From: a virus
Taxonomy: Duplodnaviria > Caudoviricetes
IMG/VR virus record: IMGVR_UViG_3300024493_000235
Coordinates: 64,001 to 128,000 of that record
DNA: 64,000 nucleotides
Strand: one strand, 5' to 3'
Below the pieces are notes generated by a model that was not told the DNA's origin, did no database searches, and was given only the letters and a program-made list of their open reading frames with translations. Made by a program: the position numbers and the translations under genes. Positions 5,746 to 43,582 of this stretch are shown piece after piece (position 1 is the first letter of the stretch; the number at the start of each line of letters is the position of its first letter).

Positions 5746-5820
5746 ATGAAAGATAAGAAATTGATTATAGTAGCTTACAGATCGTTGATCTGCGCGTATA
5801 ACAATAATCTTATCTTTGAA
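5746..5820 (+). ncRNA. structured leader motif, copy 1
   Basis: AAAGATAAGA...CAGATC-GTT-GATCTG...TCTTATCTTT nested stems. Confidence 0.6.
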
Positions 5821-5834
5821 AGAGGAGTTCCGAT

Positions 5835-6599
5835 ATGAAAAAGATTTGGGTAATCGCCTGTCTTATTCTAATCGCATTTGCAATCGTAAGTTGCAAAGCG
5901 AAGAACAAAGTCGTCGATGTGAAAAGCCAGGTAGAGGAAAGATTGCGTGCATATGTTGCACACGACCTTGAAACAGGGTCCGGAAAGGTTACAAAAGTTA
6001 CATTGAGTGATGCCCCCGAAGGCTCCGACCTTACATGGACTGCGTTTGCAACGTATACGCCAGATGCGGGTGATAATTATGATATTGAGTTATTGGTACA
6101 ACATCTTACCGCTACGAACTCTATCACATGGTGGTATGCAGCTAATTATCCGTATGGCGATAAAACAGTACCTCTTACAGGTGATATCGTTTTTGAAGAA
6201 CCGCTGAAATACCGAATGGAATACGATGTCCCATATGAAGAAGAGATGCCGGTACAATCTGTTTCAAATTCAAAAAATAAACAATCAGCAAACAATGAAT
6301 CGGCAGTTATTCTTGGCAAAGTGGAACAGAAAGGAAGTAAGTTTACTCTTTTTGATACAAACAAAAGAGAAATAACGCACATTGACATGCCAAATAGAGA
6401 GCTAATGGGCTGGGGCAATGATTTCTTCCTTACAAAATCAAAGGACAATACATTCAGATCGTATAATCTCAGAGGCACAGAAATCGGCTCAATAACCGTC
6501 AGTAATGTGGAGTCTGTAACCTTTGATAACGAAGGGTTTATTTTGAAACAAAAAGGATCGTCGCCGAGAAAATACAAAAAGAACGGACAATCAAGATAA
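5835..6599 (+). CDS. putative lipoprotein
   Basis: Signal peptide MKKIWVIACLILIAFAIVS-C. Confidence 0.75.
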   Translation: MKKIWVIACLILIAFAIVSCKAKNKVVDVKSQVEERLRAYVAHDLETGSGKVTKVTLSDAPEGSDLTWTAFATYTPDAGDNYDIELLVQHLTATNSITWWYAANYPYGDKTVPLTGDIVFEEPLKYRMEYDVPYEEEMPVQSVSNSKNKQSANNESAVILGKVEQKGSKFTLFDTNKREITHIDMPNRELMGWGNDFFLTKSKDNTFRSYNLRGTEIGSITVSNVESVTFDNEGFILKQKGSSPRKYKKNGQSR

Positions 6600-6668
6600 G
6601 TAATATCGGGGCCAATTTTGGCCCCGATATTTCCGTTTTTATTTGTATTTTAAATATACATAATCTAT

Positions 6669-6750
6669 ATGAGAAATAAGAAGATTAGATTATATGATTT
6701 GGGATTGTCAATCCTCGTCATTAACAAATACTTCTTAAAGTATCAAAGAG
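6669..6750 (+). ncRNA. structured leader motif, copy 2
   Basis: TAAGAAG...ATGA..GGATT-GTC-AATCC..TCAT...CTTCTTA. Confidence 0.6.
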
Positions 6751-6756
6751 AAAAAT

Positions 6757-6924
6757 ATGGACGACGATGAAGTGCTTACAGCAACGGTAGAATTGTATCT
6801 TTCTGCAGATAGAACTTACAAGCAACTACGTTTGGTACAGCTTATGCAGAAGGTATACGAAATCAACGACAAACTGGAAAGAGAAGCACAAAAGAAAAAG
6901 AAGCGCACGATTACAACACAATAG
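6757..6924 (+). CDS. small hypothetical protein (55 aa, not in the ORF track)
   Basis: MDDDEVL...KKKKRTITTQ-stop downstream of the leader motif. Confidence 0.55.
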   Translation: MDDDEVLTATVELYLSADRTYKQLRLVQLMQKVYEINDKLEREAQKKKKRTITTQ

Positions 6925-7126
6925 GAGAAATTAACCATGGAAAACGACGATCATTTTTTGATACTAAACAACCTTTTTGATTACTATTATAATAATTTAC
7001 AACGCGGGGATTTATTATCTGTGATACGTAACATCATCCTAGGGCCATTACGGCCCTAGGTGTTATTTTTTTGTATAAGTGAAATAAAATTTAAAATATA
7101 TATAATAAAAGATAAGGAGTCCTTTA

Positions 7127-8428
7127 ATGACAAAAGAAGATAAATATATAGTGAAAATGCTTGACTTACTTGAAAGAGATTCTCATTTAGATACACTTAC
7201 AAGGCCCATATTCTCCATCGTTCGAAATGATCCTAAACGTACAACATTTTCAAATAAGGGAATGCACTATACTTACTTAGCTACAATCCTTGATGAAAAC
7301 GGAAAAGTAATTATCGTAATAGACTATGACGGAGATCATTTCGGCAAAGATTACGCTATCGATATGAAAAAAGATATTCGTATCTCTTGCAGACCGAAAG
7401 GATCGAAGTTACTTGTACTCTTATCTAATATGCCGGAATTTCACGTTCAACAATGGATACTTAAATATTTACAGCAAGATGAAAAAACATTCTTCGAAGA
7501 TCGCTTTAAAACGTGGATATCAAGAGGATACTTTTGGTATAAAGATGTAAAAGATTTTAACACTCCCGATATTTTATTAAAAGATTGGAGCAACTTAAAA
7601 CATTTTACACCAAAAACAAGCGACACAAAGTCGTATTCAAATGTTATAAACGGAATTTCAAACATCGGAATGACCCTCATAAAATACTTTCATCCGTCGA
7701 TATATCGTTGTCGTATGAAAGACAGACAAAGCCCTGAAAATATATGGTACCACCAAGATAAAGATGGAAACTTTGATTTGTTGTTACAGATGTTTAATGA
7801 ACACAGAATGTATTTAGATTGGTTCATGTGTTACAGAGTGATCCAAATGTTTGAGACTACAGACGTTGCGCCAAGAATTCCGATATTAACTCCTTCACGA
7901 GCTAAACTATTGCTATATAAATATGCAGGAGAATTTAACGAAATCTTCAATCCATTTTCAGGATTCTCAAGCGTATTATTAGCCGCAACTTCTCTTGGAA
8001 AAAAATACCTTGGCTACGATATCAATCGTACAGTTGTGCACGAATCTCAATGCATGATAGAATGGTTTGAAAAACATAAAATTCCCATTGATGCACACGT
8101 TGACAGAAAAGACGCATTTATTGATAACGACAGCAATAACCCGTTTCAAAATACATCGAATACATACGGTTGTCTATTCTCGTGTCCTCCTAATGGAGAT
8201 ACAGAAATATATTATGACAACATGATACAAGAAGAATTCTCATCATCGTATTCCTGTGAACAATGGGTACAATGGTGTCTTGATACATACAAATGTAAAA
8301 GATACATCTTTGTTGTAGACTCTAGGTGTAATAAGTTTCAAGGATATGTACAAGAAATTCTTACAACTAAAAGAGTTTCAAGATATCCTTTTAGCACACA
8401 TGAGAAAGTGTTGGTGTTTGACAGGTAA
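7127..8428 (+). CDS. degenerate endonuclease-like + DNA methyltransferase-like fusion (paralogue A)
   Basis: IDYDGDHF; FNPFSGFS (motif I variant); SCPPN (motif IV variant); C-terminal HEKVLVFD shared with paralogue B. Confidence 0.7.
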   Translation: MTKEDKYIVKMLDLLERDSHLDTLTRPIFSIVRNDPKRTTFSNKGMHYTYLATILDENGKVIIVIDYDGDHFGKDYAIDMKKDIRISCRPKGSKLLVLLSNMPEFHVQQWILKYLQQDEKTFFEDRFKTWISRGYFWYKDVKDFNTPDILLKDWSNLKHFTPKTSDTKSYSNVINGISNIGMTLIKYFHPSIYRCRMKDRQSPENIWYHQDKDGNFDLLLQMFNEHRMYLDWFMCYRVIQMFETTDVAPRIPILTPSRAKLLLYKYAGEFNEIFNPFSGFSSVLLAATSLGKKYLGYDINRTVVHESQCMIEWFEKHKIPIDAHVDRKDAFIDNDSNNPFQNTSNTYGCLFSCPPNGDTEIYYDNMIQEEFSSSYSCEQWVQWCLDTYKCKRYIFVVDSRCNKFQGYVQEILTTKRVSRYPFSTHEKVLVFDR

Positions 8429-8441
8429 TGGAGGAAAACAC

Positions 8442-9503
8442 ATGATAGCAGACATAATTGTAGGTATGCAATACGGTTCGGAAGGGAAAGGTGCTTTTGT
8501 AAATCACGCATTACAAATGGAAACCGGTTATAATATGTCGATGAGAGTCCAGTCAACACAATCGGGACATACTATATATTTTAAAAATCAAAAATATATA
8601 ATGAGGTCCATTCCTTGTGCATGGGTAAACCCGAATGTCGAATTATTGCTAGGTCCCGGCGCTTTTACAGAAAGGGATATTCTTTTGGATGAAATAAAAA
8701 GTATAAATGGATCTCTTGGAGGAGATGTGCGCGATCGACTTTTTATAGACAAAAGAGTATTTGAAGTTGAGGACCGTGATAAGCGAAAAGAAGCAGATCA
8801 AAAACTTGATAGCAGAATTGGAAGCACAATTCACGGATCAGGTTCCGCACTAAACGAAAAAATATGGAGAAAACGCACAAGAGGTAATAAAAATTTTATC
8901 GAATGGTGCCTTGCAAATAAGATAAATGTCGTTGACACAATAGACCATATACAAAAAGGAACTCTTTTAATAGAAGGATGCCAGGGAGCTATGCTTTCTA
9001 TTCATACATCACCTTTTTATCCGTATGTAACATCCAGAGAAGCCACAGCTTCAGGAATCTTATCAGAATGTGGAATATCCCCACGTGATGTAAGAAATAT
9101 CTTTGGTGTCTTTCGTACATTGCCAATCAGAGTAGGAGGGAACTCAGGACCTACAGGATCAGTTGAAATTACTTGGGAAGAAGTTTCTAGGAGAGCAGGA
9201 TATAATGTAACACCAGAAAAGACTTCCGTTACTGGCAGAATTAGGCGTATCTTCGAGTTCTCATATGATGATATGGCTCACGCTATTAGAGTAAATAAAC
9301 CCACGCACTTAATTATGACCTTTGCAAATTACATCGCTCCTTGTTTTGGAATTGATTCATGGGACAAAATTGACATCAATTCCAAAAGAAACATAGATAC
9401 ATATACATCTGTAGTAAACAAGCTTTGCAAAAATATTACACCTAACAATACTTATGGTATTGTATCAATTAACACAAATCCAATTAATTGGATAGATATC
9501 TAA
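8442..9503 (+). CDS. purZ: PurZ-like adenylosuccinate synthetase family protein (2-aminoadenine pathway)
   Basis: GMQYGSEGKG (Ser in place of the PurA Asp), RTLPIRVGGNSG, TSVTGRIRR, TFANY; 353 aa from the ATG after GGAGG. Confidence 0.75.
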   Translation: MIADIIVGMQYGSEGKGAFVNHALQMETGYNMSMRVQSTQSGHTIYFKNQKYIMRSIPCAWVNPNVELLLGPGAFTERDILLDEIKSINGSLGGDVRDRLFIDKRVFEVEDRDKRKEADQKLDSRIGSTIHGSGSALNEKIWRKRTRGNKNFIEWCLANKINVVDTIDHIQKGTLLIEGCQGAMLSIHTSPFYPYVTSREATASGILSECGISPRDVRNIFGVFRTLPIRVGGNSGPTGSVEITWEEVSRRAGYNVTPEKTSVTGRIRRIFEFSYDDMAHAIRVNKPTHLIMTFANYIAPCFGIDSWDKIDINSKRNIDTYTSVVNKLCKNITPNNTYGIVSINTNPINWIDI

Positions 9504-9593
9504 TTGATAAATAAATAAAACCAAGGGGCCAAATGGCCCCTTGGAGTTTTTCTTTTGACTATTCGCCACCCGATGCTGGAAAGACGCTCATCA
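9504..9593 (+). repeat. relic duplicate of 11695-11767 joined to 11881-11898
   Basis: 38 bp identical between 9543-9580 and 11730-11767. Confidence 0.85.
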
Positions 9594-9653
9594 TTTTTAA
9601 AAATAAATTAGAATATATATAATAATGGTATATTAAATATAAGGAGAATACTT

Positions 9654-11705
9654 TTGAAAGATATGGAGCTTACATGCACTAAATGTAACAAAACATTTTC
9701 ATTAACACGTAACGCATTTTTGAAACGGCAATACAGAGGTGTCGATACATCTCTATGTCAATGGTGTAGTAAAGCACACACAGAATTCAAAGATCATATA
9801 TATGTGCCAAAGTCAGAAAATCATATTTGCCAAAAATGCGGTAAATCCTTTACACTTACAAGAAGTGCATTTAATAAACGGAAATGCAAAAAACAAGATA
9901 CTACATTATGCAATCCGTGCAGAACAACTCAAACTACTTCTGATCGTCACGGATATGCATCTCCGCTTGCAAATCCTAATATATTACAGAAAACAAAAGA
10001 TACAATGCAAGAAAAATACGGTACAACATACGCACTACAGATTAAAGACGTTGAGGGTGTAGGATATCAAAAAGCTGTCACAACATTTCAAGCTAATTAT
10101 CACACTAATGCAGCAAATCCGTTAATGCATGCAGAAACACTTGAAAAAATAAAAGCAACAAATGTGGATAGATATGGAGATGCTAACCCATTGAATAATC
10201 CTGAAGTCAGAGCAAAGCAACAACAAACAATGATTAAACTATATGGAGGAAAACCCCAAGCAGAATCGGAAGAATGTAGAAAAAGAGCACTAGAAGTATT
10301 TCGAACAAGATACGGTCAAAATTGTTATTTGCAGTCTGCTCATTTCTCTGAGAAGATGGTACTAAAATTTGGAACAAGATACCCACAACTTACAACTCAT
10401 AGTAGTAGCAAAGAAGAAAGACATGTGTTCAGCAAAATTGAAGAACTCTTTTATCACGGTTTACTTAAAAATTCCAAATATACATTTATTTACAATGATC
10501 GAGAAAAATATAAAAACAGTGCTTTATTCACTTTCTCTTATGGTGATACCGATCATCCGTGGGACGGAATAGTGCTCAACGAAGATTATAGTATTGCACT
10601 CGTAATCGATTATGATGGTGAATATTATCATGGCGATTATCCTGACTATGATGGCGTACATTCTTCAGAAGAAAGGGATTCTATCAGAATGAAATGTGTT
10701 CCTAAAGATGCTAAGATACTTATCATCTATAAAGATACTCAGGATTACATTAAAGATATCGTTGACATACTTGGTATGGATTACGACGAATGGCTTAATA
10801 AGTTATACAACTATTGTTGTGGTATCGATTTTCCATTCTATCACAATTATTATTACGAAAAACAACTTTTACACAGTTGGAAAGCGCTTGCACTATTTAC
10901 TCCTGAGAAATGTGATAAAAAATCGTGGACAAAGCTCACCCAAGGACGCTCTACACTAGGTGGAAAACTTATTAATTATTTTCACCCGTCTATTTATAAA
11001 TGTCACACCAAAGGAAAAATATCACCATATGATGCATGGTATCATACCGATGAAAATGGTAATCGTGATTTACTTCGTAAATGTATTCGTAATAGAAGTA
11101 TTTATGCAAATTCGTATAAACCATATCGGATACTGCAAGGTTTTAACATTTCTGATATTGCACGAAAAATAACTACATTTTCAGCATCCAGAGCAAAAAT
11201 GTTACTCATAAAATATGCGCAAGAATTTGACCAAATCTTTGATCCTTTTATGGGATTTTCCGGTCGTCTTCTTGGAACTGTGGCTCTTAAAAAAGCATAC
11301 ATAGGAAACGACATAAATAAAACCATTATACAAGAAGCAAAAAATCTTATTAGATGGTTTGAAAGGCATAACATCGAAAATAGAGTTATTTTGACAAACA
11401 ATGATATACAATCGATCCCAAAAGAATATTCGATGCATAACGACGAATGCTTGTTTACGTGTCCTCCATACAAAGATACCGAAATTTGGTACGACGAAGT
11501 ATCAAAGCGAGAGATTAGATCTAATATGACAGCGGAGCAATGGGTTGAATTTTGTCTTGACACATTTAACTGTAAAAGGTATATATTCGTCGTCGATTCA
11601 CGATGTAACAAGTACAACAGCAATGTACAAGAAATATTTGTTAATAGAAGATCTGCAAAATACCATGTAAATCTTCATGAAAAAGTACTTGTTTTTGATA
11701 AATAA
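9654..11705 (+). CDS. Zn-ribbon + YG repeats + endonuclease-like domain + amino-type DNA methyltransferase (paralogue B)
   Basis: CxxC pairs; KYG/RYG repeats; IDYDGEYYHG; FDPFMGFSGRLLG; TCPPY. Confidence 0.75.
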   Translation: MKDMELTCTKCNKTFSLTRNAFLKRQYRGVDTSLCQWCSKAHTEFKDHIYVPKSENHICQKCGKSFTLTRSAFNKRKCKKQDTTLCNPCRTTQTTSDRHGYASPLANPNILQKTKDTMQEKYGTTYALQIKDVEGVGYQKAVTTFQANYHTNAANPLMHAETLEKIKATNVDRYGDANPLNNPEVRAKQQQTMIKLYGGKPQAESEECRKRALEVFRTRYGQNCYLQSAHFSEKMVLKFGTRYPQLTTHSSSKEERHVFSKIEELFYHGLLKNSKYTFIYNDREKYKNSALFTFSYGDTDHPWDGIVLNEDYSIALVIDYDGEYYHGDYPDYDGVHSSEERDSIRMKCVPKDAKILIIYKDTQDYIKDIVDILGMDYDEWLNKLYNYCCGIDFPFYHNYYYEKQLLHSWKALALFTPEKCDKKSWTKLTQGRSTLGGKLINYFHPSIYKCHTKGKISPYDAWYHTDENGNRDLLRKCIRNRSIYANSYKPYRILQGFNISDIARKITTFSASRAKMLLIKYAQEFDQIFDPFMGFSGRLLGTVALKKAYIGNDINKTIIQEAKNLIRWFERHNIENRVILTNNDIQSIPKEYSMHNDECLFTCPPYKDTEIWYDEVSKREIRSNMTAEQWVEFCLDTFNCKRYIFVVDSRCNKYNSNVQEIFVNRRSAKYHVNLHEKVLVFDK

Positions 11706-11745
11706 AACCGAGAGGCCATTTGGCCCCTCGGAGTTTTTCTTTTGA

Positions 11746-12801
11746 CTATTCGCCACCCGATGCTGGAGCAGGATTAAAGCCTGCGGCCATACCATTCTCG
11801 TAGAAACCGGCAGCGCTGTATTGCGTAGCGGCTCCTTGTTGCGGTTCGAGACCTGCAACATTCGGAGCTGTATCATCAGTGCTAGAAAGACGTTCATCAA
11901 CACCGTGCCATACCGAAACACCGAGGTCGAAATTAGAATAGTTGTCAGCATAGAAATTACTCTTTTCGAGTATTACTGCGGCTAAGCTGTTGACAGCGTT
12001 GTTTTCATGGAAGATACCAAAGAACGGAATATCCAGTTCCATCGGAGAATGCTCCCCTTGAGTATACTCGAAGTGACTGTTGGGAACTTGGTTCGGGAAT
12101 GCGCCAAACCATATACAGGCAAACTCGATAGAGTCTAATCCGTAAGCACCGCCTGAGTTATCAGTTAATGCATAAAGGATTATACCTGAATGGTTAATCG
12201 GTGAGAAGCGCAGATTACTTCCGTCGAAGGTCTTACCATGGTATGTACCATAGCCAGAACCTAGATCCGAAATACCGGTTACCCAATATTTTGAAATCTT
12301 ACGGAACATTCCGCCTTGCGTTTCTTGGAATTTGAGATTGAAGTTATTATTCCCTTTCTTGATGCCGGTTGGAACGCTGTAGCTTTCTGCGTTATTACCG
12401 TAAGTAATTTCGGCAGTCTGCAATTCGTAGTTTCCGATACCAGAGAGTCCCTTACACATACGCTCAATCATCCTCTGGCTTAAGCCCCTAATTGAAGGCT
12501 CAAAGAAGCGAGGCATGGAAAGAGCCCAGACACGTCCATAGCCGCCAATGAATGGCTCAATAAAAGGAAGAGTGTCCTGGGTGACGTTGGGAACGCCAAG
12601 GAATATGTTGTTGTTTGCAAAGTCGGGAATTACGTTTCTTGTGTTATCCCAACCGCGAGGGGGAGATCCGCCCCAGTCTATTATGGTTGTTGCGTCGGTG
12701 TAATCTCCAGGAGCCGGGAAGGTTACTTCGGAAGTTCTAAGTCGTCTATCCTCGGCATTACTGCCTTGAACGACAGTTTTTCCATCAAATGTTACAGCCA
12801 T
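11746..12801 (-). CDS. putative tail tube protein
   Basis: 351 aa directly downstream of the sheath gene; tube-like FQE..G, YWVTGI, GAFP pattern; raised GC as in highly expressed genes. Confidence 0.7.
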   Translation of the reverse strand: MAVTFDGKTVVQGSNAEDRRLRTSEVTFPAPGDYTDATTIIDWGGSPPRGWDNTRNVIPDFANNNIFLGVPNVTQDTLPFIEPFIGGYGRVWALSMPRFFEPSIRGLSQRMIERMCKGLSGIGNYELQTAEITYGNNAESYSVPTGIKKGNNNFNLKFQETQGGMFRKISKYWVTGISDLGSGYGTYHGKTFDGSNLRFSPINHSGIILYALTDNSGGAYGLDSIEFACIWFGAFPNQVPNSHFEYTQGEHSPMELDIPFFGIFHENNAVNSLAAVILEKSNFYADNYSNFDLGVSVWHGVDERLSSTDDTAPNVAGLEPQQGAATQYSAAGFYENGMAAGFNPAPASGGE

Positions 12802-12812
12802 GTGTTACCTCC

Positions 12813-19595: not shown

Positions 19596-19684
19596 TAAAC
19601 TACCGTGGCCATCATTATGGCCACGGTATTTCCGTTTTTATTTGTATTTTAATTATATATCATATTAATATCAAGGAGATTAAT

Positions 19685-22809: not shown

Positions 22810-23262
22810 ATGATTTATACGTCTTATTTCGCTATAGCGCAACATGTACCGTTTCCAATATCGATCGCTTTAAGGGAGCCTGGAAACTACCCTAAAATAC
22901 CGTTTTTAGCCCCAACAAGTGAGCTATTATATGCGTACAAGCATAAAAACGTTAGTGAGACCCAATATATCGAGATATACAACGAAATGCTTCACAAAAT
23001 AAAGCCCGAAAGGATTATCTCTGAAATAAAGAAATTAAAGAAGAATTTTTACTATACTGAAGAAGATGTCACGTTGTGTTGTTGGGAAAAATCTGGTTAT
23101 TTTTGTCACAGACATTTAGTATCACAGTATTTATCTGAAGCTGGATATATGGTGGCAGAATGGGCGAAATCACCATCTTTATATATTGCTAACGCTCCAA
23201 AACATGGAAAACTTGCACCGGGATCTTCTGTTTCAGAATCAAATCCTGACGGATGGATTTAA
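22810..23262 (+). CDS. DUF488-family protein (paralogue)
   Basis: MIYTSYFA, CCWEKSGYFCHRH. Confidence 0.7.
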   Translation: MIYTSYFAIAQHVPFPISIALREPGNYPKIPFLAPTSELLYAYKHKNVSETQYIEIYNEMLHKIKPERIISEIKKLKKNFYYTEEDVTLCCWEKSGYFCHRHLVSQYLSEAGYMVAEWAKSPSLYIANAPKHGKLAPGSSVSESNPDGWI

Positions 23263-23288
23263 AAATATTTTGAGTATATATCATCTAT

Positions 23289-23370
23289 ATGAGAAAATAT
23301 AGAGATTAGATTATTAAATCTTGAGTCGTTGACTCGTGTTAGTAACAATATCCTGTATAAGTATCAAAGG
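23289..23370 (+). ncRNA. structured leader motif, copy 3
   Basis: ATATAG...TCTT-GAGTC-GTT-GACTC-GTG...CTGTAT. Confidence 0.6.
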
Positions 23371-24499: not shown

Positions 24500-24574
24500 A
24501 TATACCTCCATTTACAAAAATGTTTTTCTACGATCCTATCGTATCTACATAAATCTTAAATATATATCATATTA

Positions 24575-24655
24575 ATGAGAGATAAGATATTTAGATTATA
24601 ATGTCTTGGATCGTTGATCCGCGCATGTAACAAGTATATCTTATGATATCAAAGG
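24575..24655 (+). ncRNA. structured leader motif, copy 4
   Basis: ATAAGATAT...TCTT-GGATC-GTT-GATCC-GCG...ATATCTTAT. Confidence 0.6.
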
Positions 24656-27827: not shown

Positions 27828-27980
27828 TTTTGTCTCCTTACCTCAATGATATATATTTATTTCAAAGGATCATACATAACAATCATAGATATTTTTCATA
27901 GTTATGATAGACCTAATATATCGTAAATACAAAGGTTAGGAGTATATATCATTTTGATATGTAAAAGGAGAATTACAAAA

Positions 27981-30029
27981 ATGGCAAGACCGAGAAGTTT
28001 TGAGCCAGGAAAATCTAAGCATTGCAAGTACCGGACTTTTGGGAAAACGTGCACATCGTGTGGAAAAACGTTTTTAATCACTAGCCGCAACATCTTACGT
28101 CGTCAAGGAAGAAAACGGCCGACAGATATATGCGAGGTATGTCTTAGGGCCCAAGACAACCAAACAAGATTTGGAGAAAACTACGAAGAATGGAAAGATG
28201 ACGTAAACGCAAAAAGAAAGAAAACCGTACAAAAACATTACGGCGTTGATCATCAAATGCGCAGCAAAAAAGTTAAACAGAAAGTTGTTGCAACAACACG
28301 TAAATGCTACGGAGTTGACAATGTTGCCCATTGTCCAGAAATCGTCGAAAAACGAAAAGCGACAATGAGGAAACGACATGGTGTGGATTATTCGTTATCA
28401 TCGGCAGTTCTAAGAAAAAAGGCACGACAAACGACGTTTAAAAGATTTGGCGTAGAAAATGTAGCATTACTTCCTGAGAATCAAGCAAAATTGCATTCTG
28501 CAGAAACACAAGCAAAACGTAAAGCTACTATGTTAACACGATTTGGTGTCGACTCGATGTTTAAGTTGAAAAATTTTCACGACATGAGAAGAAAAGGATG
28601 CATCAGAAATAGCGGAGAACCAGAACCTCAACTTAGAAAAAGTGGAAAGTCAGAAGCAGAAAAATCTATCACATCGAAACTGATGTTTATTTGCACAGAA
28701 GGGTTGTTAAAAGACAAACACCTTGTTGTATGCGATGATCCAAAAGATAATACAACCTGTATTACTGTACATGGTGTATTATATAGCCATAGTTGGGACA
28801 TCACAATCAGAGATCAATCTGGCAGTTTAATTCTTGTAATAGATTACGACGGTGATTATTATCATGGGGAAAAGTTTGCTGATTATGATGCTATCATACA
28901 AGCCGAATACAAAGATACCGAACGGTTTATGACAATACCAAAAGGTGTAATGTGGCACATCATAAATGAAAACGGTTTCGATACAGCCATTGAAGATGTC
29001 GTAAAGATTCTTGGATACGATTACTCCGGATTTTTGAAAAGCCTGTATGACTTTGCATGCTCCATTCAATTCCCATTCTGCAAAGACTATCCAGAATACT
29101 ATAATGATAAAACGTTATTAGGAAGTTGGCATAGACTCTGTAATTATGGCGAAGAAGACATAACAAAACCGCGATATAAATATTACAACTATGACAAACT
29201 TGAAAAGGTTGCGGACAAGTCCCGTACAGGAGGGAAACTTATTAACTATTTCCACCCATCTATTTACAAATGTAGATCTCGTGATAAGCCATCTCCATAT
29301 GAAGCATGGCACCATGTTGATGAAAATGGGGATCGCAACTTGTTAATGAAGGCAATAAAAAACCGCATGATATATTCTGCACGATATCAGCCGTTTAGAA
29401 TTCTTCAAGGCTTTTCTAATTCGTATATTGCACCGAAAGTAACGGTATTTTCTCCATCACGAGCACGACTCTATTTGCACAAATATGCACGAAAATTCAA
29501 TACAGTATTTGATCCGTTTATGGGTTATTCAGGTCGTATGCTTGGTGCATTATCTCTTGAAAAAAATTACATCGGATCGGATATAAATCCGACCATTTTT
29601 GAAGAAGCTGGAGACATCGTCAAATGGTTGGACAAAAATAAAGAACTCGCCGCCGATGTTTGCATTACATGCAAGGATATTTTAACATACGAAAGAGGTA
29701 CACAATACGAATGCTTATTCACATGTCCTCCGTATAAAGATCTTGAAATATGGTGGGATGATTTGACACAGACGGAAATACGATCAAACAATACTGCTGA
29801 AGAATGGGTTATGTATTGTCTTGAAATGTTTGAGTGTACGCGATACATTTTTGTTGTTGATGCTCGTTGTAACAAGTTTCAACCATACGTTGTTCATATT
29901 TGTAATTCTATAATAGAAAACAAATATAACTCGTATAAACGGGAAAAAGTTCTTGTTATAGATTTTGAAGACAGGAACAGAATGGGGTTTGGACAACAAA
30001 ATTTCAAATTTAGTATCGTTAAAGAATAA
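27981..30029 (+). CDS. Zn-ribbon + YG repeats + endonuclease-like domain + DNA methyltransferase (paralogue C)
   Basis: HYGVD/RFGVE repeats; IDYDGDYYHG; FDPFMGYSGRMLG; TCPPY. Confidence 0.75.
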   Translation: MARPRSFEPGKSKHCKYRTFGKTCTSCGKTFLITSRNILRRQGRKRPTDICEVCLRAQDNQTRFGENYEEWKDDVNAKRKKTVQKHYGVDHQMRSKKVKQKVVATTRKCYGVDNVAHCPEIVEKRKATMRKRHGVDYSLSSAVLRKKARQTTFKRFGVENVALLPENQAKLHSAETQAKRKATMLTRFGVDSMFKLKNFHDMRRKGCIRNSGEPEPQLRKSGKSEAEKSITSKLMFICTEGLLKDKHLVVCDDPKDNTTCITVHGVLYSHSWDITIRDQSGSLILVIDYDGDYYHGEKFADYDAIIQAEYKDTERFMTIPKGVMWHIINENGFDTAIEDVVKILGYDYSGFLKSLYDFACSIQFPFCKDYPEYYNDKTLLGSWHRLCNYGEEDITKPRYKYYNYDKLEKVADKSRTGGKLINYFHPSIYKCRSRDKPSPYEAWHHVDENGDRNLLMKAIKNRMIYSARYQPFRILQGFSNSYIAPKVTVFSPSRARLYLHKYARKFNTVFDPFMGYSGRMLGALSLEKNYIGSDINPTIFEEAGDIVKWLDKNKELAADVCITCKDILTYERGTQYECLFTCPPYKDLEIWWDDLTQTEIRSNNTAEEWVMYCLEMFECTRYIFVVDARCNKFQPYVVHICNSIIENKYNSYKREKVLVIDFEDRNRMGFGQQNFKFSIVKE

Positions 30030-32572: not shown

Positions 32573-32583
32573 ATACCCTCCCT

Positions 32584-36350: not shown

Positions 36351-36457
36351 AAAAACTCCTTATTCGAGTTTGTGTTTATTAACATGTTTAATGCAGGATT
36401 TTAAGAGGGTATCAACATTGTCTTAAATTATATATCATGTAAGTAAGGAGATAAAAT

Positions 36458-36853: not shown

Positions 36854-36936
36854 TATCCGGGGCCAAATCGGCCCCGGATATTATGTTTTTAATTGAAGTA
36901 TAATTATATATAATGTCAGTAAACAGGAGGGATATT

Positions 36937-37614
36937 ATGAGCGTAGAAGAAATATCACTAGAAGCTATTCTAAACGATGATGTAGGTAAAACTATTATTC
37001 ACGGCATTGGTGATAAATTTAAATTCTCAGAAGACGCGTTTTATAACGAAGAATTTGACAAAATACGGGGTGACTTAGACAATCGAAACGTTGAAGTCAT
37101 TGATCGCGAAAAAGAAACTGGCCATATCGATCATTTCATCTGGAATATCGGAAAAAGCAATGAAAACATTACCGACACAAGCGAAGAGAAAGACGGGTTT
37201 TCATTTTATATGGCAAGATTTATCCATTACGATCCATACAAAATGGAAGTACCAGAACTTGCAGACCAATCAAAAGGAGAAGACCGAACGGCCTTCATAG
37301 GACAAATTTTTGATCCTTTACATCCGACATTATCAAAGAAAGATCCTGTACTTGCTATTATTCAACTTAAAAAAGAATATAAAGGCAGAATACGGATTAT
37401 ATTTTGTTACAGAAAAAATCTTTCAAAAGAACTTCGACTGGCATATTTTGAACGCGCTACTGCGATGTCGCGTACAGAAAACAGACGAAAACCTGTAACT
37501 AAAGAAAGTGCAGCTCAAAACGGGGAAATATACGATGATCCGTATGGCGGCGACTTTCCGAAGGCGCTTGATCGACTTCGTAAAATAGTCGACAATTGGG
37601 AAGAGTCTGATTAA
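36937..37614 (+). CDS. hypothetical protein with EISLEAIL N-terminal motif
   Basis: Start after AGGAGG; early-type promoter at 36905. Confidence 0.7.
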   Translation: MSVEEISLEAILNDDVGKTIIHGIGDKFKFSEDAFYNEEFDKIRGDLDNRNVEVIDREKETGHIDHFIWNIGKSNENITDTSEEKDGFSFYMARFIHYDPYKMEVPELADQSKGEDRTAFIGQIFDPLHPTLSKKDPVLAIIQLKKEYKGRIRIIFCYRKNLSKELRLAYFERATAMSRTENRRKPVTKESAAQNGEIYDDPYGGDFPKALDRLRKIVDNWEESD

Positions 37615-37655
37615 TCATATAATATCTGGGGTCATTTGGCCCCAGATATTATTTT

Positions 37656-38459
37656 TTAGCATTTGTACTTACACGCTTTTACAAACTCAATCCATTGATG
37701 TGTATCATCAACGAATGGCTTCGGGCATATTTTTCCTGTAAGGTCATAATGCCTTAGAAGCAGTATCGTTCCAAGTTCAGGTGTCTGCATAACAGTATTA
37801 GGTGAAAGAGAACCTTCTTCATCAATGAATAAAGAGAGTTCTCTTGACACCCATTGGATAAACGTGGCGGCATTTATAGCTGCTTTTTCCCAATTACCGT
37901 TATTGCAAATTTCGATTTGTAAACACTTGAAATTCTGAGCGTTGTTAAACGCGTTGCGTGCTATCTGTGTCTGATTTTTATTTACAGGATTTACGATGAT
38001 TCGTGCGTCTCCTGCACCATGACATCTTTCGTTAAACGGAAGTGCCATACACATGGAATTTTCATCAAAGAGAACTTGAGTTGAACCATGTCCGAAAGGC
38101 ACAATTTTTTCAACGGTGCTACTTATTTCTTGTAACATCTCTTCTTTGACAATACCTTGCTCGGTTTTTCTTTCGACTGTTGTCCTTTTCCAACCCCTAC
38201 AAAAATATTTTGCATTTGCAAGAGCTGTTGCGCCAGGATTTGCATTTGCCGTATAATGAACGACAATGCCATTAAAATTGGTAAGCAATCTTCCGTCACG
38301 ATTAGGATGTCCGTCAGGAATTATGTTTGTCTGAACCTTTATTCCGCTTTTCTTTTCGAAGTCAGCTACACGGGCAGGTTCACTTAAACGACCTAATGCG
38401 TTTACGATACTTTGATCGCTTGAATAAATTCGAGATTCCTCTTTTGTGATCATTCCCAT
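37656..38459 (-). CDS. N-acetylmuramoyl-L-alanine amidase (Amidase_2), probable endolysin
   Basis: IVVHYTAN, IEIC, RHYDLTGKICP; late promoter 38487-38498. Confidence 0.85.
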   Translation of the reverse strand: MGMITKEESRIYSSDQSIVNALGRLSEPARVADFEKKSGIKVQTNIIPDGHPNRDGRLLTNFNGIVVHYTANANPGATALANAKYFCRGWKRTTVERKTEQGIVKEEMLQEISSTVEKIVPFGHGSTQVLFDENSMCMALPFNERCHGAGDARIIVNPVNKNQTQIARNAFNNAQNFKCLQIEICNNGNWEKAAINAATFIQWVSRELSLFIDEEGSLSPNTVMQTPELGTILLLRHYDLTGKICPKPFVDDTHQWIEFVKACKYKC

Positions 38460-38519
38460 AATTTTCTCCTTAATAAAAGTACTCTACATGATGATGTTTC
38501 AAGGACTCAAATGTGTATT

Positions 38520-39035
38520 TTATTTAGAGATAATGAGATGAAATCTTTTATTGACAACGTCACTTGATATATATATTTTTGACATAAGATATGTAGCAAG
38601 ATAATTATGATATTTTGCTAGTGCATCTTCTTGTACAAATGAAGGAGTATATTCTCTAAATTGTTCAAATACAATTCCTCTTGCGACATTAGATATATCC
38701 GCATTTGCAACATCGGTGGCTTTCATCATGATGTCGTATGTAGGTTCGATGTGAACGCCCCAACCGATAAGATGATATAATTTCATTGTCGGTTTAAAAG
38801 AAATACTATACCATTGCTGTGTCTGGTGTAAGAAATTCTCTTGTAACATTTGAAATCGTTCTGTTGTGATATTAGCTTTTAGGATATTTTGTATTTGAAA
38901 TAACCCTAGTTTTTCATTTATCCACGAATGATACACTTGAGCTATATATTTACAAATGTCAGAAACACCTAAATAGACTATATTATCACTCTTCTTGGTC
39001 TGTGTCGTCGGCTGTTGAGTCTTTTCCTGTTTCAT
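38520..39035 (-). CDS. hypothetical protein
   Basis: 171 aa in a late operon. Confidence 0.65.
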   Translation of the reverse strand: MKQEKTQQPTTQTKKSDNIVYLGVSDICKYIAQVYHSWINEKLGLFQIQNILKANITTERFQMLQENFLHQTQQWYSISFKPTMKLYHLIGWGVHIEPTYDIMMKATDVANADISNVARGIVFEQFREYTPSFVQEDALAKYHNYLATYLMSKIYISSDVVNKRFHLIISK

Positions 39036-39654
39036 TTTTGCTCCATCTTTCTTTTCGGTATTTAATAGCTTCTAAGTGTTCGGGTATTATAATACTTGAT
39101 GTATTATAACATATGAGCACCTCGATTCTTGGGTTAACTGAGTAATATTTGCTGGTGACATTTGTCACTACTTGTGAGTCATCATAAATTAAGAACTCTT
39201 TAACTGTGTCAAAAACAATCTTTTCCATGTTGTCATTATCAAACCTTCTGTATGCTGGACGCAGAATTTTTGCTTCACATAAATATCGTTTTTCTCTTGA
39301 AAAAAATTGTGGTGTTTTGATATAGTAGTTAAAATGAAGAATCACTTCTTCATACCTTGGGAATGAGCCATCTAAAAATGGGGAGCTTCCTAGCTGTTCT
39401 GTTATCATAGCCCTTAACATTTTTACAGTTTTCTCTTTATCAGGCACATAGATTCTCCATAATTTAGGATTAATGCGAATAGGTTTATACGGATGAGGAT
39501 CAATATTAAGTACAAATGGAATAAAAAACAAAGACGCAGGATTTGCATAAGATGCGTATTTTTCATTTATATTTTTAACCTGTGTTTCAGTTAATTTACA
39601 ATCCCGCATAACCTTTTGAATGTATATGGAATTATCAAAGAAGTTATCCATCAT
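38986..39654 (-). CDS. rusA: RusA-like Holliday junction resolvase
   Basis: DNDNMEKIVFD...IYDDSQVV...PRIEV. Confidence 0.8.
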   Translation of the reverse strand: MMDNFFDNSIYIQKVMRDCKLTETQVKNINEKYASYANPASLFFIPFVLNIDPHPYKPIRINPKLWRIYVPDKEKTVKMLRAMITEQLGSSPFLDGSFPRYEEVILHFNYYIKTPQFFSREKRYLCEAKILRPAYRRFDNDNMEKIVFDTVKEFLIYDDSQVVTNVTSKYYSVNPRIEVLICYNTSSIIIPEHLEAIKYRKERWSKNETGKDSTADDTDQEE

Positions 39655-41351
39655 TGAAAAAAGTCCCTCACTCCTGTGACTATGCGAGCAGGAATTCCTA
39701 ATAATGGATTACTCGCAACTCCAGCTATCCAAGTGCGAGGATCAAAAAATCTTTGAAATTTAAACTTTGCAGCTTTCCATGCGTTTTGCCATCTTGAAGA
39801 TAATGTACTCGATGCAAAAGCGTCAACTCCGCCTAATACGTTTAAGTAATCACGAAGCATACTGTTTTTATTAAAGAACGTTCTTCCAGCCCATTTATGA
39901 CTCATTGACATAACAAGGGTTCCGAATAAATCCTTTACAGTGAGGGTTATTTCAACAGTACGAGCTAACCTGCTTATTGTCCAATCGTTTGTATCGGATC
40001 CTCTTTTTATGGAAACACTTGTTATCATCCCCATATCACAACTAAACCACCCTTTTGAATACATACGTATTAACGGAGGAGATGAATAAACAGAAGAATC
40101 GGATTGACGCGGCATAATAAAACCCAATATACACGCTATAGGAAAGAGTATATTTTCAATGTAACAATTAGGTTCCCCATTTGGAGCGTGAAGTTTTATT
40201 TGTATTGTAATATTTTTTGAATATGTGGATTCTTTCCATATTTCCGGGAATAAAAGATTTCCGCCAGATTTGATAACAGATTCCGCAGTTCCAGAAAGAG
40301 TTCCTGCAATACCGCCTAGTGCATTCGCAGCACCAGAAAGTGAAAAACCTTTTCCGTCATGAGCATCATTTGTTAAAAACAATACTTCTTTTGCTTGATC
40401 TGATATTCCTTTTGCTTTTTCAGCCGCAGCCGATTGCCCTGTTGTGTTATCAAAAGAATCTCCGGCATCAGTAGATTTCTCAACACGGAACGGGATGAAC
40501 GAAGGTTTTGAAAGATAATTGCTTTTATTGTTATTCATGGCATCCGCAAAATCCCAGAAACCGTAATACCTTGAAAACATTGTAAGATAATCATTTACGG
40601 TATTAAATAATCCTTCACCATAAGCTGTAGCTGGAATATCAATATGCATACGCACCATAAGTTCATTTAATATGCCAGAGACATACATACGATATGTTTT
40701 AAAGTCTGGTTGAAAATCGTAGAATTTCATTGGACCTGATTTTCCGTCTGTCTGTATGGTCGTAGAATCTTCTGTGAGTTCAGTTAAAAAATCTTCTAGT
40801 GTAAAAGTTTGTACACCAAGTTCAGAATCACTTTCAAAGTTTTTTTCTAATATAGCAGTCCTTAAATGATCGGCGTCACTTCCTGAAATACCACCTGTAA
40901 GTCCACCGAATAAAGTTTGAGTTAACCCAAAGAATTTCGGTTTTCCAGGCTGAATAAAAACAATTGGATTATTAGGTCTTATTCTTTTATTATACACTCT
41001 TCCGTAATATGGAGCGGCAATACCGGCAGTTCTCGGATCGGCTAACATGTTGTATTGCCATAACGGATTGAGAATTCCTCTTTCTCCAAGTTTAAGAGAA
41101 GTTAAATCCGGCTTTCCTTCCCCTTTGGCTCCTTCACCTGGAAACGGAATATCTGTAGATATATTATATCCTGACGGGTCCATTCCTAATGCGAAAGGAG
41201 ATGCAAAAAATACCGCATTGCTAGCGGATAAAGGTTCTGTATCTTCAAGAGATTCTTCGTGCCATTTTTTTGATGTGGGAATACCCATAGTATATTTACT
41301 TTCTATATCGTCTTTGTCTTCTTCTTTAATCCCGTGCCATAAAAGATACAT
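39651..41351 (-). CDS. putative baseplate/tail-tube-like virion protein
   Basis: FPEIWKESTYS, YSSPPLIR, GMITSVSIKRG pattern; late promoter 41377-41388. Confidence 0.55.
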   Translation of the reverse strand: MYLLWHGIKEEDKDDIESKYTMGIPTSKKWHEESLEDTEPLSASNAVFFASPFALGMDPSGYNISTDIPFPGEGAKGEGKPDLTSLKLGERGILNPLWQYNMLADPRTAGIAAPYYGRVYNKRIRPNNPIVFIQPGKPKFFGLTQTLFGGLTGGISGSDADHLRTAILEKNFESDSELGVQTFTLEDFLTELTEDSTTIQTDGKSGPMKFYDFQPDFKTYRMYVSGILNELMVRMHIDIPATAYGEGLFNTVNDYLTMFSRYYGFWDFADAMNNNKSNYLSKPSFIPFRVEKSTDAGDSFDNTTGQSAAAEKAKGISDQAKEVLFLTNDAHDGKGFSLSGAANALGGIAGTLSGTAESVIKSGGNLLFPEIWKESTYSKNITIQIKLHAPNGEPNCYIENILFPIACILGFIMPRQSDSSVYSSPPLIRMYSKGWFSCDMGMITSVSIKRGSDTNDWTISRLARTVEITLTVKDLFGTLVMSMSHKWAGRTFFNKNSMLRDYLNVLGGVDAFASSTLSSRWQNAWKAAKFKFQRFFDPRTWIAGVASNPLLGIPARIVTGVRDFFQ

Positions 41352-41440
41352 AGAATCTCCTTAATAAGGATAAGATTACTACAATGTTTTTCGCTCATTA
41401 TTTTACAAAAAATCGAGGGCGAAACCGCCCTCGATATACG

Positions 41441-42103
41441 TTACATAACACCTGTTGAAGCTATTGAAGCTCCACCTTGATCGATAAGGGCCAACCTACT
41501 TTGAATTGAAGCGAGATAATTCATTGTCTCTGATGTAAGGTTCTTGAAGTCTATCGACTTCAAATCCTGAATCAACGGACGAATTGATTCCAGTTGTTTT
41601 ATCTCTCCGAAGAACCCAAAAGCTACGTCAACAGCGCTTCTCATCATTTCAAGTTCATTTTCAGAGACATTTGTGATATCTGTCCAGTCGATAATAATTT
41701 CAGGAAAATCGATTTTACATCGTTCCTGAAGTCTTCGTATGATGCTAGACATTTGTTCTACAGGTTTTCCAGCTCTTCCTTGTAAAGCGATAATATCCAA
41801 TCTGTATATCACTTTTCTTTGGAGATGCACAGTTTTGGAATGATCGAGAATTTGATCCCAGAGTATGACATTCATAAATTCAGGAGAATCTCCCTGAATC
41901 GAACTGCATACGTAAAAGAGCGTTTTTTCATGATCGACTATATCATTAGGCGGAGCGTATCCTTGAGCTAGTATATCGATATTCATAAGTTGGGAAGCAA
42001 CTTTGTAATTGTTTACAGCATCGATATTTACCCTATATACTTTTCCACGCAAGTCAACTAAGGACAGTTGATCTCCAACTGAGTATTTAGCGTCATCGTA
42101 CAT
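41441..42103 (-). CDS. late hypothetical protein
   Basis: 220 aa with AAGGAG RBS. Confidence 0.7.
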   Translation of the reverse strand: MYDDAKYSVGDQLSLVDLRGKVYRVNIDAVNNYKVASQLMNIDILAQGYAPPNDIVDHEKTLFYVCSSIQGDSPEFMNVILWDQILDHSKTVHLQRKVIYRLDIIALQGRAGKPVEQMSSIIRRLQERCKIDFPEIIIDWTDITNVSENELEMMRSAVDVAFGFFGEIKQLESIRPLIQDLKSIDFKNLTSETMNYLASIQSRLALIDQGGASIASTGVM

Positions 42104-42113
42104 ACGTTTCTCC

Positions 42114-43385
42114 TTATCCGTATTTTGTGATACAACCGGCTATGTACAAAAAAATACTTTTTCTAAAAGCAGATCTTGTAGCTGGTCGATTGAGTTTTAA
42201 AAACTGACTTCCATAAGCCACCACAATATCATCCAAGTTTTGTTTCAACTCTTCCAAAAGAGGATCTATCGTATTCGAAATACGATACATTTTTATGCAG
42301 TATATCATAAAGTATTTGCTTTTGACATACTCGACTTTATTCTTCGGATTCTTCAAAAATATCTGAAGTATCTTTATGATGATATTTTGAATCGCCTTTG
42401 TCTCTTTTTGAAAAATCATTTCCAGAGTGTTGCAAATTGTCTCACTCGATATTTTGCAAGTAGTGGCCGCATCACGAAGTATAGCTTTATCAACAGGTGT
42501 TGATTTTATTTTATTGTACACTTTTTGAGTGAGATCTGTTATTATACTGGAAAGATTATCAAGTGGCTTCATTGTTTGTGTGCCATCGTCTCCCTGATAC
42601 CAATCGCTGCTTTCTCCAAGATATTTCTGTTTTTCAACGTTCTTTCTATACTCGTTAAAAACGTTACGAAGAAAGTTGTTAATACGCATAGAAAGGTTTG
42701 TAATGTACGTTTTCATGTTGTGGTCTGTGTGGCTTTTGTACAATCTTAAACCTAAGTTAGAATCGTTATCGGATGATATGTATTTCAATACGCCAAGAAT
42801 TGTACTTTCTTTTCGTAAAAGATATTTCTCTGTCATATTATTTATAGTGTATTCCATGATGTCTTTATTTGCATCGTATTTCCACAGATGTTGCTGTCTT
42901 GACGAATAAAACCGTAATGCCATGAAAAGAGAAGAATAATTGACACATTCTCTTGCTAATTCTTTTGAAGGATAATCCCTGTACATTAAGTTCAGCATTG
43001 TTAAAAGAAAAAATAAAGGATTTCCAAGAGTTATAAATGTGTCAGATAAAAGCGGAGATTTTTTCATAATGCTTTTAACTTCACTTTTTATTAACCCAAA
43101 CATATTAAACAATGGATCTGAATCCTTTTGTTCTATAAACCAAAGCTTTTTATATGGGCCGGATATTAAAAGGGATTCGGCGTTTTTATCGATATACGTA
43201 GCACAGTGCGTTAAAAACGGTTTTGCTAAATCCATTATTTTCGGTTTAAATAATGCATATAAGCCATCGTATATTATCGTATTTTTAAGCGGATCTGTAT
43301 CTTCAAAATTGATAGACTCCCAGTCTGCAAAATCTTCACTTTCAAACTGGATTGTGGGGTTTTCTTCAAACTCGATCATATCCAT
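42114..43385 (-). CDS. late hypothetical (probably virion) protein
   Basis: 423 aa with acidic x-F-E N-terminus; late promoter 43400-43411. Confidence 0.65.
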   Translation of the reverse strand: MDMIEFEENPTIQFESEDFADWESINFEDTDPLKNTIIYDGLYALFKPKIMDLAKPFLTHCATYIDKNAESLLISGPYKKLWFIEQKDSDPLFNMFGLIKSEVKSIMKKSPLLSDTFITLGNPLFFLLTMLNLMYRDYPSKELARECVNYSSLFMALRFYSSRQQHLWKYDANKDIMEYTINNMTEKYLLRKESTILGVLKYISSDNDSNLGLRLYKSHTDHNMKTYITNLSMRINNFLRNVFNEYRKNVEKQKYLGESSDWYQGDDGTQTMKPLDNLSSIITDLTQKVYNKIKSTPVDKAILRDAATTCKISSETICNTLEMIFQKETKAIQNIIIKILQIFLKNPKNKVEYVKSKYFMIYCIKMYRISNTIDPLLEELKQNLDDIVVAYGSQFLKLNRPATRSAFRKSIFLYIAGCITKYG

Positions 43386-43503
43386 AAAAGTACCTCACTT
43401 ATAACGATGTTTCCACCATATCAAATTCAAGAAATGAAATGTTTTTATGTTATTTTTTTTCATAGTTCAGAAACTAAAATATATTTAACTATATATCATT
43501 ATT

Positions 43504-43582
43504 GTAAGAAATATAAGATAAGATTGCAAGGATCTAGGATCGTTGATCCGTGTCCTGTGACGAAACTTATATACTAAAAAGG
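43504..43582 (+). ncRNA. structured leader motif, copy 5
   Basis: ATATAAG...AGGA-TCTA-GGATC-GTT-GATCC-GTG-TCCT...CTTATAT. Confidence 0.6.

Follow-up and report, generated by a model that had tools for sequence, protein, structure and literature searches.

Is the irregular hairpin that recurs between promoters and ribosome sites in a 64,000-nt stretch of viral DNA (the window) a single structured RNA family, and what would it do in front of otherwise unrelated genes? The window comprises bases 64001–128000 of a single 268,442-bp virus record, IMGVR_UViG_3300024493_000235 (36.8% G+C; completeness estimated at 91% by CheckV), and the DNA and RNA runs that contain sequence of this phage come from termite-gut metagenomes. 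An earlier reading of the letters alone (the sequence-only reading) had proposed five dispersed copies of a covarying leader, each beginning shortly after a promoter. We conclude that these very probably belong to a family of cis-acting structured 5′ leader RNAs, with nine full copies and one apical-only variant, made from AR9-type early promoters of the virion RNA polymerase (RNAP) and starting 6 nt after a TATAYATNAT box. The same high confidence applies, as a joint judgement, to the phage being an uncultured, AR9/PBS1-like jumbo phage of 268 kb; its major capsid protein is distant kin, at 20–22% identity, of those of Bacillus phages AR9 and PBS1, Listeria phage LPJP1 and staphylococcal jumbo phages.

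A covarying family of leader RNAs

All five copies lie where the sequence-only reading had placed them (Table 1), and each, folded alone, gives the same nested hairpin, with a minimum free energy (MFE) of −15 to −21 kcal/mol and z of −1.7 to −4.3. A covariance model built from these five copies has nine matches in the 268-kb genome, all on the + strand and with E values of 1e-8 to 1e-16; beyond the nine, there is no match below E ~1, and a second model built from all nine copies returns an identical list. The five proposed copies are therefore all real, but the genome total is nine full copies plus one variant (units k1–k10, the variant being k10). The variant, at genome position 25232, retains the apical part alone, a 5-bp stem with its GUU loop and 3′ GUG, within a different long stem. 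The genome contains 10 instances of this apical module (5 bp + GTY + 5 bp + GYG), where 0.45 are expected, and leaders account for 9 of the 10.

The leader is an irregular hairpin of 61–74 nt that consists, from base to tip, of P1, an internal loop, P2, a bulge, P3, a small loop, P4 and a triloop. It is preceded by 0–6 unpaired nucleotides counted from +1, often GAGAAA; this tail is 0–1 nt in k1, k2 and k10 and 5–6 nt in the remaining seven units. P1 is 6–12 bp long with a purine-rich 5′ strand and differs in sequence between all copies. Above it lies an internal loop whose inner part sets AGA on the 5′ side opposite CAA on the 3′ side, followed by P2 (UUAU/RUAA), a bulge of 1–2 nt and a variable P3 of 3–5 bp. 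The small loop above P3 has YU on its 5′ side and one pyrimidine on its 3′ side and is framed by a conserved G-Y-G, and P4, of 5–6 bp, ends in a triloop, GUU or GUC. The sequence-only reading was right about the outer stems (AAAGATAAGA/TCTTATCTTT, TAAGAAG/CTTCTTA, ATATAG/CTGTAT, ATAAGATAT/ATATCTTAT and ATATAAG/CTTATAT), the GATTR...TRACRA segment, the short variable stem and the apical 5–6-bp hairpin with its GTY triloop; the internal loop that it called asymmetric is better described as symmetric.

The copies compared are paralogs within one genome and include close pairs (k8/k9 and k1/k4), so independent covariation events are fewer than the pair cells counted below. Within this scope, several tests support the fold. 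First, the copies were aligned by hand and every letter was compared with the genome; in this alignment, 197 of 202 pair cells (97.5%) are canonical, that is, Watson–Crick or G–U; when partners are shuffled among copies the fraction is 74.7% (sd 2.0), and 0 of 20000 shuffles reach the observed value. Second, in the covariance-model alignment, which is less hand-fitted, 90.1% of cells are paired compared with 71.2% in shuffles, and 17 of its 19 pairs show changes on both sides. Third, pairing in the covariance-model alignment falls to 37–43% when partners are slid by 1–3 columns, and the 5′ strand of P1 pairs at 100% with its own 3′ strand compared with 57% for the 3′ strands of other copies. 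The compensating changes that had been claimed for the stems thus stand up to both the shuffle and the slid-partner tests. Fourth, the pair cells contain 20 G–U and 0 A–C pairs, from which it follows that the folded molecule is the + strand RNA, as the sequence-only reading favoured, and that a DNA palindrome or a minus-strand RNA is ruled out; a DNA cruciform or protein-bound palindrome was rejected on the same count.

Conservation is concentrated outside the variable helices. Mean pairwise identity is 0.93 for AGA, 0.93 for CAA, 0.87 for the triloop and 0.73–0.78 for P2, compared with 0.44–0.51 for the strands of P1 and P3, where the random expectation at this base composition is 0.29. That the stems have drifted so far while unpaired bases and P2 were kept argues that something reads the loops, be it a protein, another RNA or a tertiary fold.

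Some more specific interpretations of the loops were tried and rejected: kissing of the loop with an AAC in its own stem (no covariation), a K-turn at the internal loop (the non-bulged strand is unsuited), and tRNA anticodon or TGT mimicry by the GUU/GUC loop (no U33-like base).

Transcription from AR9-type early promoters

Early promoters of phage AR9 are read by the injected virion RNAP and have been mapped experimentally, with the consensus AAATATATATTAT-N6-G(+1) (PMC5312081). All nine full copies are preceded by TATA[TC]AT[ACT]AT-N6-G/A, which has the extended AT-rich box ((A)TATATATTAT), the N6 spacer and the purine start of this promoter type. The box has 88 matches in the genome, of which ~65 are directed towards genes, and the leader is present at ~10 of these ~65; most promoters of the class have a strong AAGGAG-type ribosome site within 10–25 nt. 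Because the box matches the AR9 consensus and occurs at ~65 genes, the promoter described in the sequence-only reading is very probably that of a phage early class, of which the leader marks a minority. Given the kinship with AR9, the boxes would be recognized by an injected multisubunit virion RNAP, without need of host RNAP or protein synthesis. The sole copy with a fair −35/−10 match is copy 1, which scores 10/12 as a sigma-70-like promoter and may be used by the host polymerase. The proposed tie between leader and promoter holds, but its spacing of about 5 nt needs refinement: a 6-nt gap separates the box from the predicted +1, and the outer stem begins 0–6 nt further on.

RNA contigs from two metatranscriptome runs both start at window position 23291, the exact predicted +1 of copy 3, and extend over 183 and 213 nt, across the leader and into the open reading frame (ORF). 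The leader is therefore part of a transcript and, in at least some of the messenger RNA, remains joined to the ORF; the contigs begin upstream of the hairpin rather than downstream of it, where a start would have spoken against a structured leader. Gaps in RNA-contig coverage, which include copies 1, 2 and 4, are uninformative on expression.

Some observations concern the surroundings of these promoters. A short element, CGTATCTACAT, lies ~12–13 nt upstream of the box at window positions 5710–5722 and 24543–24555, and a counterpart, CCGTATTAAA, is found in about nine AR9 early promoters (Table S2); both phages have it at some of their early promoters. It may serve as an element of the promoter on its upstream side, and at copy 1 it contributes to the 10/12 sigma-70-like match. 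A 240-nt DNA contig of the source sample has a 35-nt match, with 3 differences, to the promoter and leader start of copy 1 (window 5728–5762) and diverges on both sides; its source may be a related phage of the same gut, with promoter and initial transcribed sequence in common. The promoter class also includes members with untranslated regions (UTRs) of 70–100 nt and different folds, at genome positions 25914, 84409, 109040 (window 45040), 196277, 253844 and 268385(−). The first of these has a +1 hairpin, GAGATATA..TATATCTT, and the UTR at 196277 contains a terminator-like hairpin; such long, differently folded UTRs may be further leader types or attenuators.

Leader genes and their ribosome sites

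In 8 of the 10 units, a single ORF is followed directly by an intrinsic terminator, and in five of them (k1, k2, k6, k9 and k10) a fresh promoter comes next. The products are unrelated to one another, as had been claimed, and are mostly ORFans. They include a putative lipoprotein, a DHH-type phosphoesterase and a P-loop protein, with products of 55, 75, 148, 155, 171, 198 and 224 aa lacking a family match. The GNAT label that the sequence-only reading gave to the gene after copy 4 finds no Pfam or PHROG support. A word-based search of 5.8 billion proteins returned no close homologue of the DHH protein.

The UTR is 84–89 nt long in all nine full copies. Its hairpin base lies 10–22 nt (usually 18–19) upstream of the AUG and directly abuts the Shine–Dalgarno (SD) sequence, which no predicted fold engages in pairing. 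When the 5′ strand of P1 is removed, no consistent SD-sequestering helix appears; pairing of the SD with the pyrimidine-rich 3′ strand of P1 is weak and varies between copies, and the alternative folds reach only −2 to −6 kcal/mol. SD/anti-SD pairing is weaker in leader genes, in line with the weak SDs noted from sequence: the mean is −6.6 kcal/mol compared with −9.7 kcal/mol in 42 short-UTR early genes (Mann–Whitney p = 2e-4), a control set called only with an SD of −4 kcal/mol or better and so biased to stronger values. The variant k10, which is without the AGA/CAA core, has a strong AAGGAGG ribosome site. A leader peptide was rejected as the source of conservation: the ATG at −2 to +1 is not in the RNA, the frame stops after 6–8 codons in copies 3 and 4, and there are indels between copies.

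The DNA upstream of the boxes is mosaic, with shared k-mers of 11–18 nt; an 18-mer is common to k8 and k9, and CGTATCTACAT to k2 and k5. The 25 nt before the copy 2 box (TATTTCCGTTTTTATTTGTATTTTA) recur before an early promoter that has a strong ribosome site and no leader (window 19626–19663 compared with 6627–6664), which makes the leader a separable module. Overall, contigs, covariation and the SD comparison uphold the core of the sequence-only reading, a transcribed + strand structured leader tied to a phage promoter before unrelated weak-SD genes.

Table 1. Leader cassettes in the window (positions count from the first base of the window)
Feature	Position	Strand	Details
Terminator before copy 1 cassette	5673–5696	+	Intrinsic, GGGGCC..GGCCCC + T-run; closes upstream unit
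Copy 1 promoter	5732–5748	+	Box TATATATTAT, N6 spacer, predicted +1 G at 5748
Copy 1 leader	5749–5817	+	P1 AAAGAUAAGA/UCUUAUCUUU, UGA/CAA loop, P2, P3, P4 CAGAUC/GAUCUG, GUU loop
Copy 1 SD and gene		+	SD AGAGGAG after hairpin; ATG 5835; gene 5835–6599, 254-aa putative lipoprotein
Terminator after copy 1 gene	6602–6631	+	
Copy 2 promoter	6655–6671	+	Box TATACATAAT, N6 spacer, predicted +1 G at 6671
Copy 2 leader	6677–6737	+	P1 UAAGAAG/CUUCUUA, P4 GGGAUU/AAUCCU, GUC loop
Copy 2 SD and gene		+	Weak SD AAAGAG; ATG 6757; 55-aa ORF
Copy 3 promoter	23275–23291	+	Box TATATATCAT, N6 spacer, +1 G at 23291 (RNA contig start)
Copy 3 leader	23297–23358	+	P1 AUAUAG/CUGUAU with G-U pair, P4 UGAGUC/GACUCG, GUU loop
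Copy 3 gene		+	ATG 23378; 148-aa ORFan
Copy 4 promoter	24561–24577	+	Box TATATATCAT, N6 spacer, predicted +1 G at 24577
Copy 4 leader	24582–24644	+	P1 AUAAGAUAU/AUAUCUUAU, AGA/CAA loop, P4 UGGAUC/GAUCCG, GUU loop
Copy 4 SD and gene		+	SD AAAGGUGA; likely ATG 24664; 224-aa ORFan
Copy 5 promoter	43490–43506	+	Box TATATATCAT, N6 spacer, predicted +1 A at 43506
Copy 5 leader	43511–43572	+	P1 AUAUAAG/CUUAUAU, AGA/CGA loop, P2 UUGC/GUGA, P3 AGGAU/GUCCU, P4 GGAUC/GAUCC, GUU loop
Copy 5 gene		+	ATG 43591; 466-aa DHH-type phosphoesterase

Elsewhere in the window, the protein encoded at 8346–9503 (+) has a strong Adenylosuccinate synthetase match (Pfam E 6e-38). Two paralogs of ~690 aa, at 9654–11705 (+) and 27954–30029 (+), have DUF7487 and homing-endonuclease-like PHROG matches and may be mobile insertions; one adjoins the major capsid gene. 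Just upstream of copy 3, 22810–23262 (+) encodes a 150-aa DUF488-family protein (Pfam E 5e-9) whose N terminus (IYTSYFA) resembles those of ORFs after promoters at genome positions 64043 and 86776, so that the DUF488-like ORFs look like a small paralog family.

Searches for relatives

The sequence-only reading did not recognize the leader as a known family, and Rfam 15 agrees: the 64-kb window has no match at gathering score, and at the seven loci with leader copies nothing up to E 10 overlaps the leader on its own strand. Both covariance models returned nothing credible in AR9 or in four other AR9-like phages (LPJP1, SA1, PALS_2 and BpSp); the best AR9 match, at 65243, was rejected for its unrelated fold. 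Within 85 kb around the capsid gene of phages with 50–66% capsid identity, no leader was found, only a terminator at E 0.02–0.06. A loose IUPAC pattern gave 119 single chance matches in viral contigs, 0 of which passed the covariance model, and a stricter pattern had no match in viral contigs; it gave 6 matches in metagenome contigs and another 4 in genomes of species, each of them single, and none passed the models. No relatives turned up in IMG/VR, whether sought with the DHH protein, with the capsid protein or with an alignment of capsid proteins, and megablast against phage records had no match.

One of these relatives carries a different structure at the equivalent point. At L157:9560–9695 (−), on the contig of a phage whose capsid protein is 66% identical, a nested GC-rich hairpin leader of unrelated kind begins at +1 of the same promoter box, and a second strong hairpin comes after it (MFE of −46 kcal/mol, z of −5.0). 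In three further contigs (L153, L154 and L156), long structured RNAs follow the same box at a syntenic site.

The early units of AR9 are a close parallel in layout, with nearly the same promoter consensus and +1 spacing and a minority of early genes with UTRs of ~80–120 nt (Lavysh et al. 2017, PMC5312081). They differ from the units described here in that the long AR9 UTRs have 5′ SD-like AAAGGAG runs and unrelated hairpins. In the early UTRs of AR9 genes g024, g044, g087, g104, g132, g253 and g270 (NC_031039), an SD-like AAAGGAG/AAAGGAAG run lies 15–30 nt from the 5′ end, far from the start codon. An early-UTR motif, whose function its authors left open, was predicted in AR9 (Lavysh et al. 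2017, PMC5312081). The SD-like run may be this motif, and it resembles a stabilizer of the STAB-SD type.

A possible operator for a small early regulon

Among the mechanisms offered for the leader, the conserved loops favour one with a specific binding partner. We tentatively favour the reading that the leader is a factor-binding operator on a small early regulon, a reading that falls just short of probable. The conserved loops and P2 would be the recognition surface for a trans-acting factor, most likely an RNA-binding protein encoded by phage or host. The helix base, at about −19, borders the 30S footprint and adjoins a weak SD, so that a factor bound to the leader could prevent or promote initiation and thereby alter stability; bound near the ribosome site, it would set translation initiation and hence message stability. 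The regulon would comprise monocistronic early accessory genes, set apart from the ~55 early genes with short leaders and strong ribosome sites, and the conserved ends of the cassettes would probably also aid the shuffling of ORFan genes by recombination.

Translational operators that a protein binds just before the ribosome site offer an analogy. After the manner of the Escherichia coli thrS operator and the phage T4 RegA regulon, one factor could act on several unrelated mRNAs through a shared 5′ element beside the SD. The likeness is one of mechanism only: RegA sites are unstructured and overlap the AUG, and the thrS operator mimics a tRNA arm.

A narrower form of the operator reading is possible but rather doubtful. 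Here the leader would be the operator of a new phage post-transcriptional regulon, in which a dedicated RNA-binding protein reads the AGA/CAA loop and the GUY/G-Y-G apical module and times or throttles about ten accessory genes. Such a protein might be delivered with the virion or be among the first early gene products made, and one small basic leader-gene product might act on its own message.

Several points weigh against the operator reading in either form. The evidence comes entirely from paralogs in one uncultured genome, with no copy in the phages and collections searched, and gene conversion between cassettes could be part of the reason why the paralogs have kept their loops alike. The SD comparison carries the bias of its control set given above. 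Contig starts are a weak indicator of RNA ends, and both runs come from one study; the nucleotide-exact agreement of these starts with an independent +1 prediction is hard to dismiss. RNase III, double-stranded RNA-binding domain (dsRBD) and L7Ae proteins were not detected in the phage and no binding factor was found, and protein-atlas look-ups of the small basic 75-aa and 55-aa leader-gene products gave no informative matches.

Alternative roles of the leader

The best-surviving alternative, unlikely in our view, is a generic 5′-terminal protective hairpin that needs no specific partner: it would shield the triphosphate end from a pyrophosphohydrolase and from 5′ exonuclease or endonuclease entry, and so make poorly translated messages last longer. 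In k1, k2 and k10 the hairpin starts at +1 or +2, and in the others within 6 nt, and weakly translated mRNAs are those that need such protection. RNase action in Bacillus subtilis is controlled by 5′-proximal structure (PMC4838370). Different 5′ hairpins follow the same promoter type at +1 in the relative with 66% capsid identity and occur on some of the long AR9 early UTRs. Against this, most copies have a single-stranded 5′ tail of 5–6 nt, and protection explains neither the constant multi-loop architecture nor the ~90% identity of the unpaired AGA/CAA, triloop and G-Y-G next to near-random stems. The 5′-terminal stabilizer hairpins of the ermC, aprE, ompA and T7 gene 10 leaders function by structure, not by loop sequence, unlike the present leader, in which loops are the most conserved part. 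Loop conservation thus makes a plain protective hairpin insufficient as an explanation.

Distinctly less likely is a processing or stabilizing site of RNase III type, an option raised in the sequence-only reading, in which a host double-strand-specific nuclease cuts the irregular helix, removes the 5′ end and alters translation or decay. In size the substrate would fit, as the coaxial stack of P1–P4 spans ~22–27 bp with internal loops, irregular double-stranded RNA of at least ~20 bp being typical of such substrates. RNase III sites in SP82 early mRNA were reportedly described by Panganiban and Whiteley (1983) and by Mitra and Bechhofer (1994), both cited in PMC4838370. Like the leader in general form, the T7 and SP82 sites are irregular hairpins that occur several times in phage early RNA, each with internal loops and a length of ~two helical turns. 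In B. subtilis, RNase III is an enzyme of narrow specificity with known targets in phage SP82, and narrow specificity could explain conserved loops (PMC4838370). The T7 and SP82 sites, however, lie between the cistrons of polycistronic RNA and are cleaved there, whereas the leader is at the extreme 5′ end of monocistronic units, with no upstream cistron to separate or stabilize. RNA contigs join +1, leader and ORF in two runs, so unprocessed molecules exist, although such contigs are compatible with partial cleavage, and no phage-encoded RNase III or dsRBD was detected. It is the monocistronic units together with the contigs spanning leader and ORF that lower this option.

We regard as improbable a ligand-sensing, riboswitch-like element, or one that contacts the ribosome as a direct translational enhancer recruiting the 30S subunit to weak sites. 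Conserved internal loops in a compact hairpin, the weak SDs and a hairpin base at about −19, the edge of the 30S footprint, would all suit it. A riboswitch, however, would have an expression platform, and none is present: there is neither consistent SD-sequestering pairing nor a terminator after the leader, and no Rfam riboswitch matches even at E 10. For ribosome contact, mimicry of the 16S 3′ region was rejected, as only the 6-mer UAACAA is in common, a match expected by chance.

Recombination offers another role, very improbable as the only one and plausible beside another: a ~100-bp promoter–leader unit would be kept as homology for shuffling ORFan genes, without function at the RNA level. 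The precedent is the PeSL cassettes of the T4-type phages RB49 and phi1, likewise a repeated unit of ~100 bp that combines an early promoter with a stem-loop (Arbiol et al. 2010, PMC2839356). As with PeSL, the units here prefer ORFan genes, each with its own terminator, and their mosaic upstream parts (the 25 nt of copy 2 at window ~19654, the 18-mer of k8/k9 and CGTATCTACAT of k2/k5) suggest shuffling; these PeSL-type traits are seen in one genome without a close relative. The two systems differ in other respects. PeSL promoters are of host sigma-70 type, in contrast to the AR9-type virion-polymerase box here, and as its stem-loop PeSL has a simple GC-rich terminator that sits upstream of the promoter or within it, a role filled here by the separate GGGGCC..GGCCCC terminator. 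The leader, by contrast, is transcribed, multi-looped and AU-rich, lies downstream of +1, has conserved loops and lacks a U-tract. Homology would predict identical stems rather than compensatory double changes; P1, at 45% identity, is 100% paired, and the asymmetry of G–U over A–C (20 to 0) indicates selection on RNA. The covariation thus contradicts recombination as the sole role and leaves it as an additional one.

Equally improbable is processive antitermination or modification of the polymerase by the RNA, as by put of HK022 or nut/boxB of lambda, which are compact stem-loops just after early promoters and resemble the leader in position and form: in 8 of 10 units a single gene directly precedes a strong terminator, after which five of the eight have a fresh promoter, and this leaves nothing for read-through to reach. 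An excised small RNA, also suggested by the sequence-only reading, is unsupported, given that no terminator or U-tract follows the hairpin and the contigs continue into the ORF. In the phiKZ-like phage 201phi2-1, small RNAs arise from 5′ UTRs by premature termination (PMC11512511); the leaders here show no such premature-termination RNA.

Implications for early gene control

The leader is a real and cleanly defined RNA family, so far confined to one uncultured genome, and promoter-plus-hairpin cassettes on early genes of large phages are a theme that is partly described already. To our knowledge, what is known of early gene control in giant phages that bring an RNA polymerase of their own concerns almost only promoters. 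A subset of early messages marked by a covarying RNA with conserved loops and weak ribosome sites offers a handle on how early genes are sorted after transcription, in whether and when they are translated and in the lifetime of their messages. The leader is small enough for direct reporter tests and is a candidate addition to RNA family databases. If the operator reading is true, it would mean a new RNA–protein pair and a new layer of early-gene control in AR9-like jumbo phages with multisubunit polymerases.

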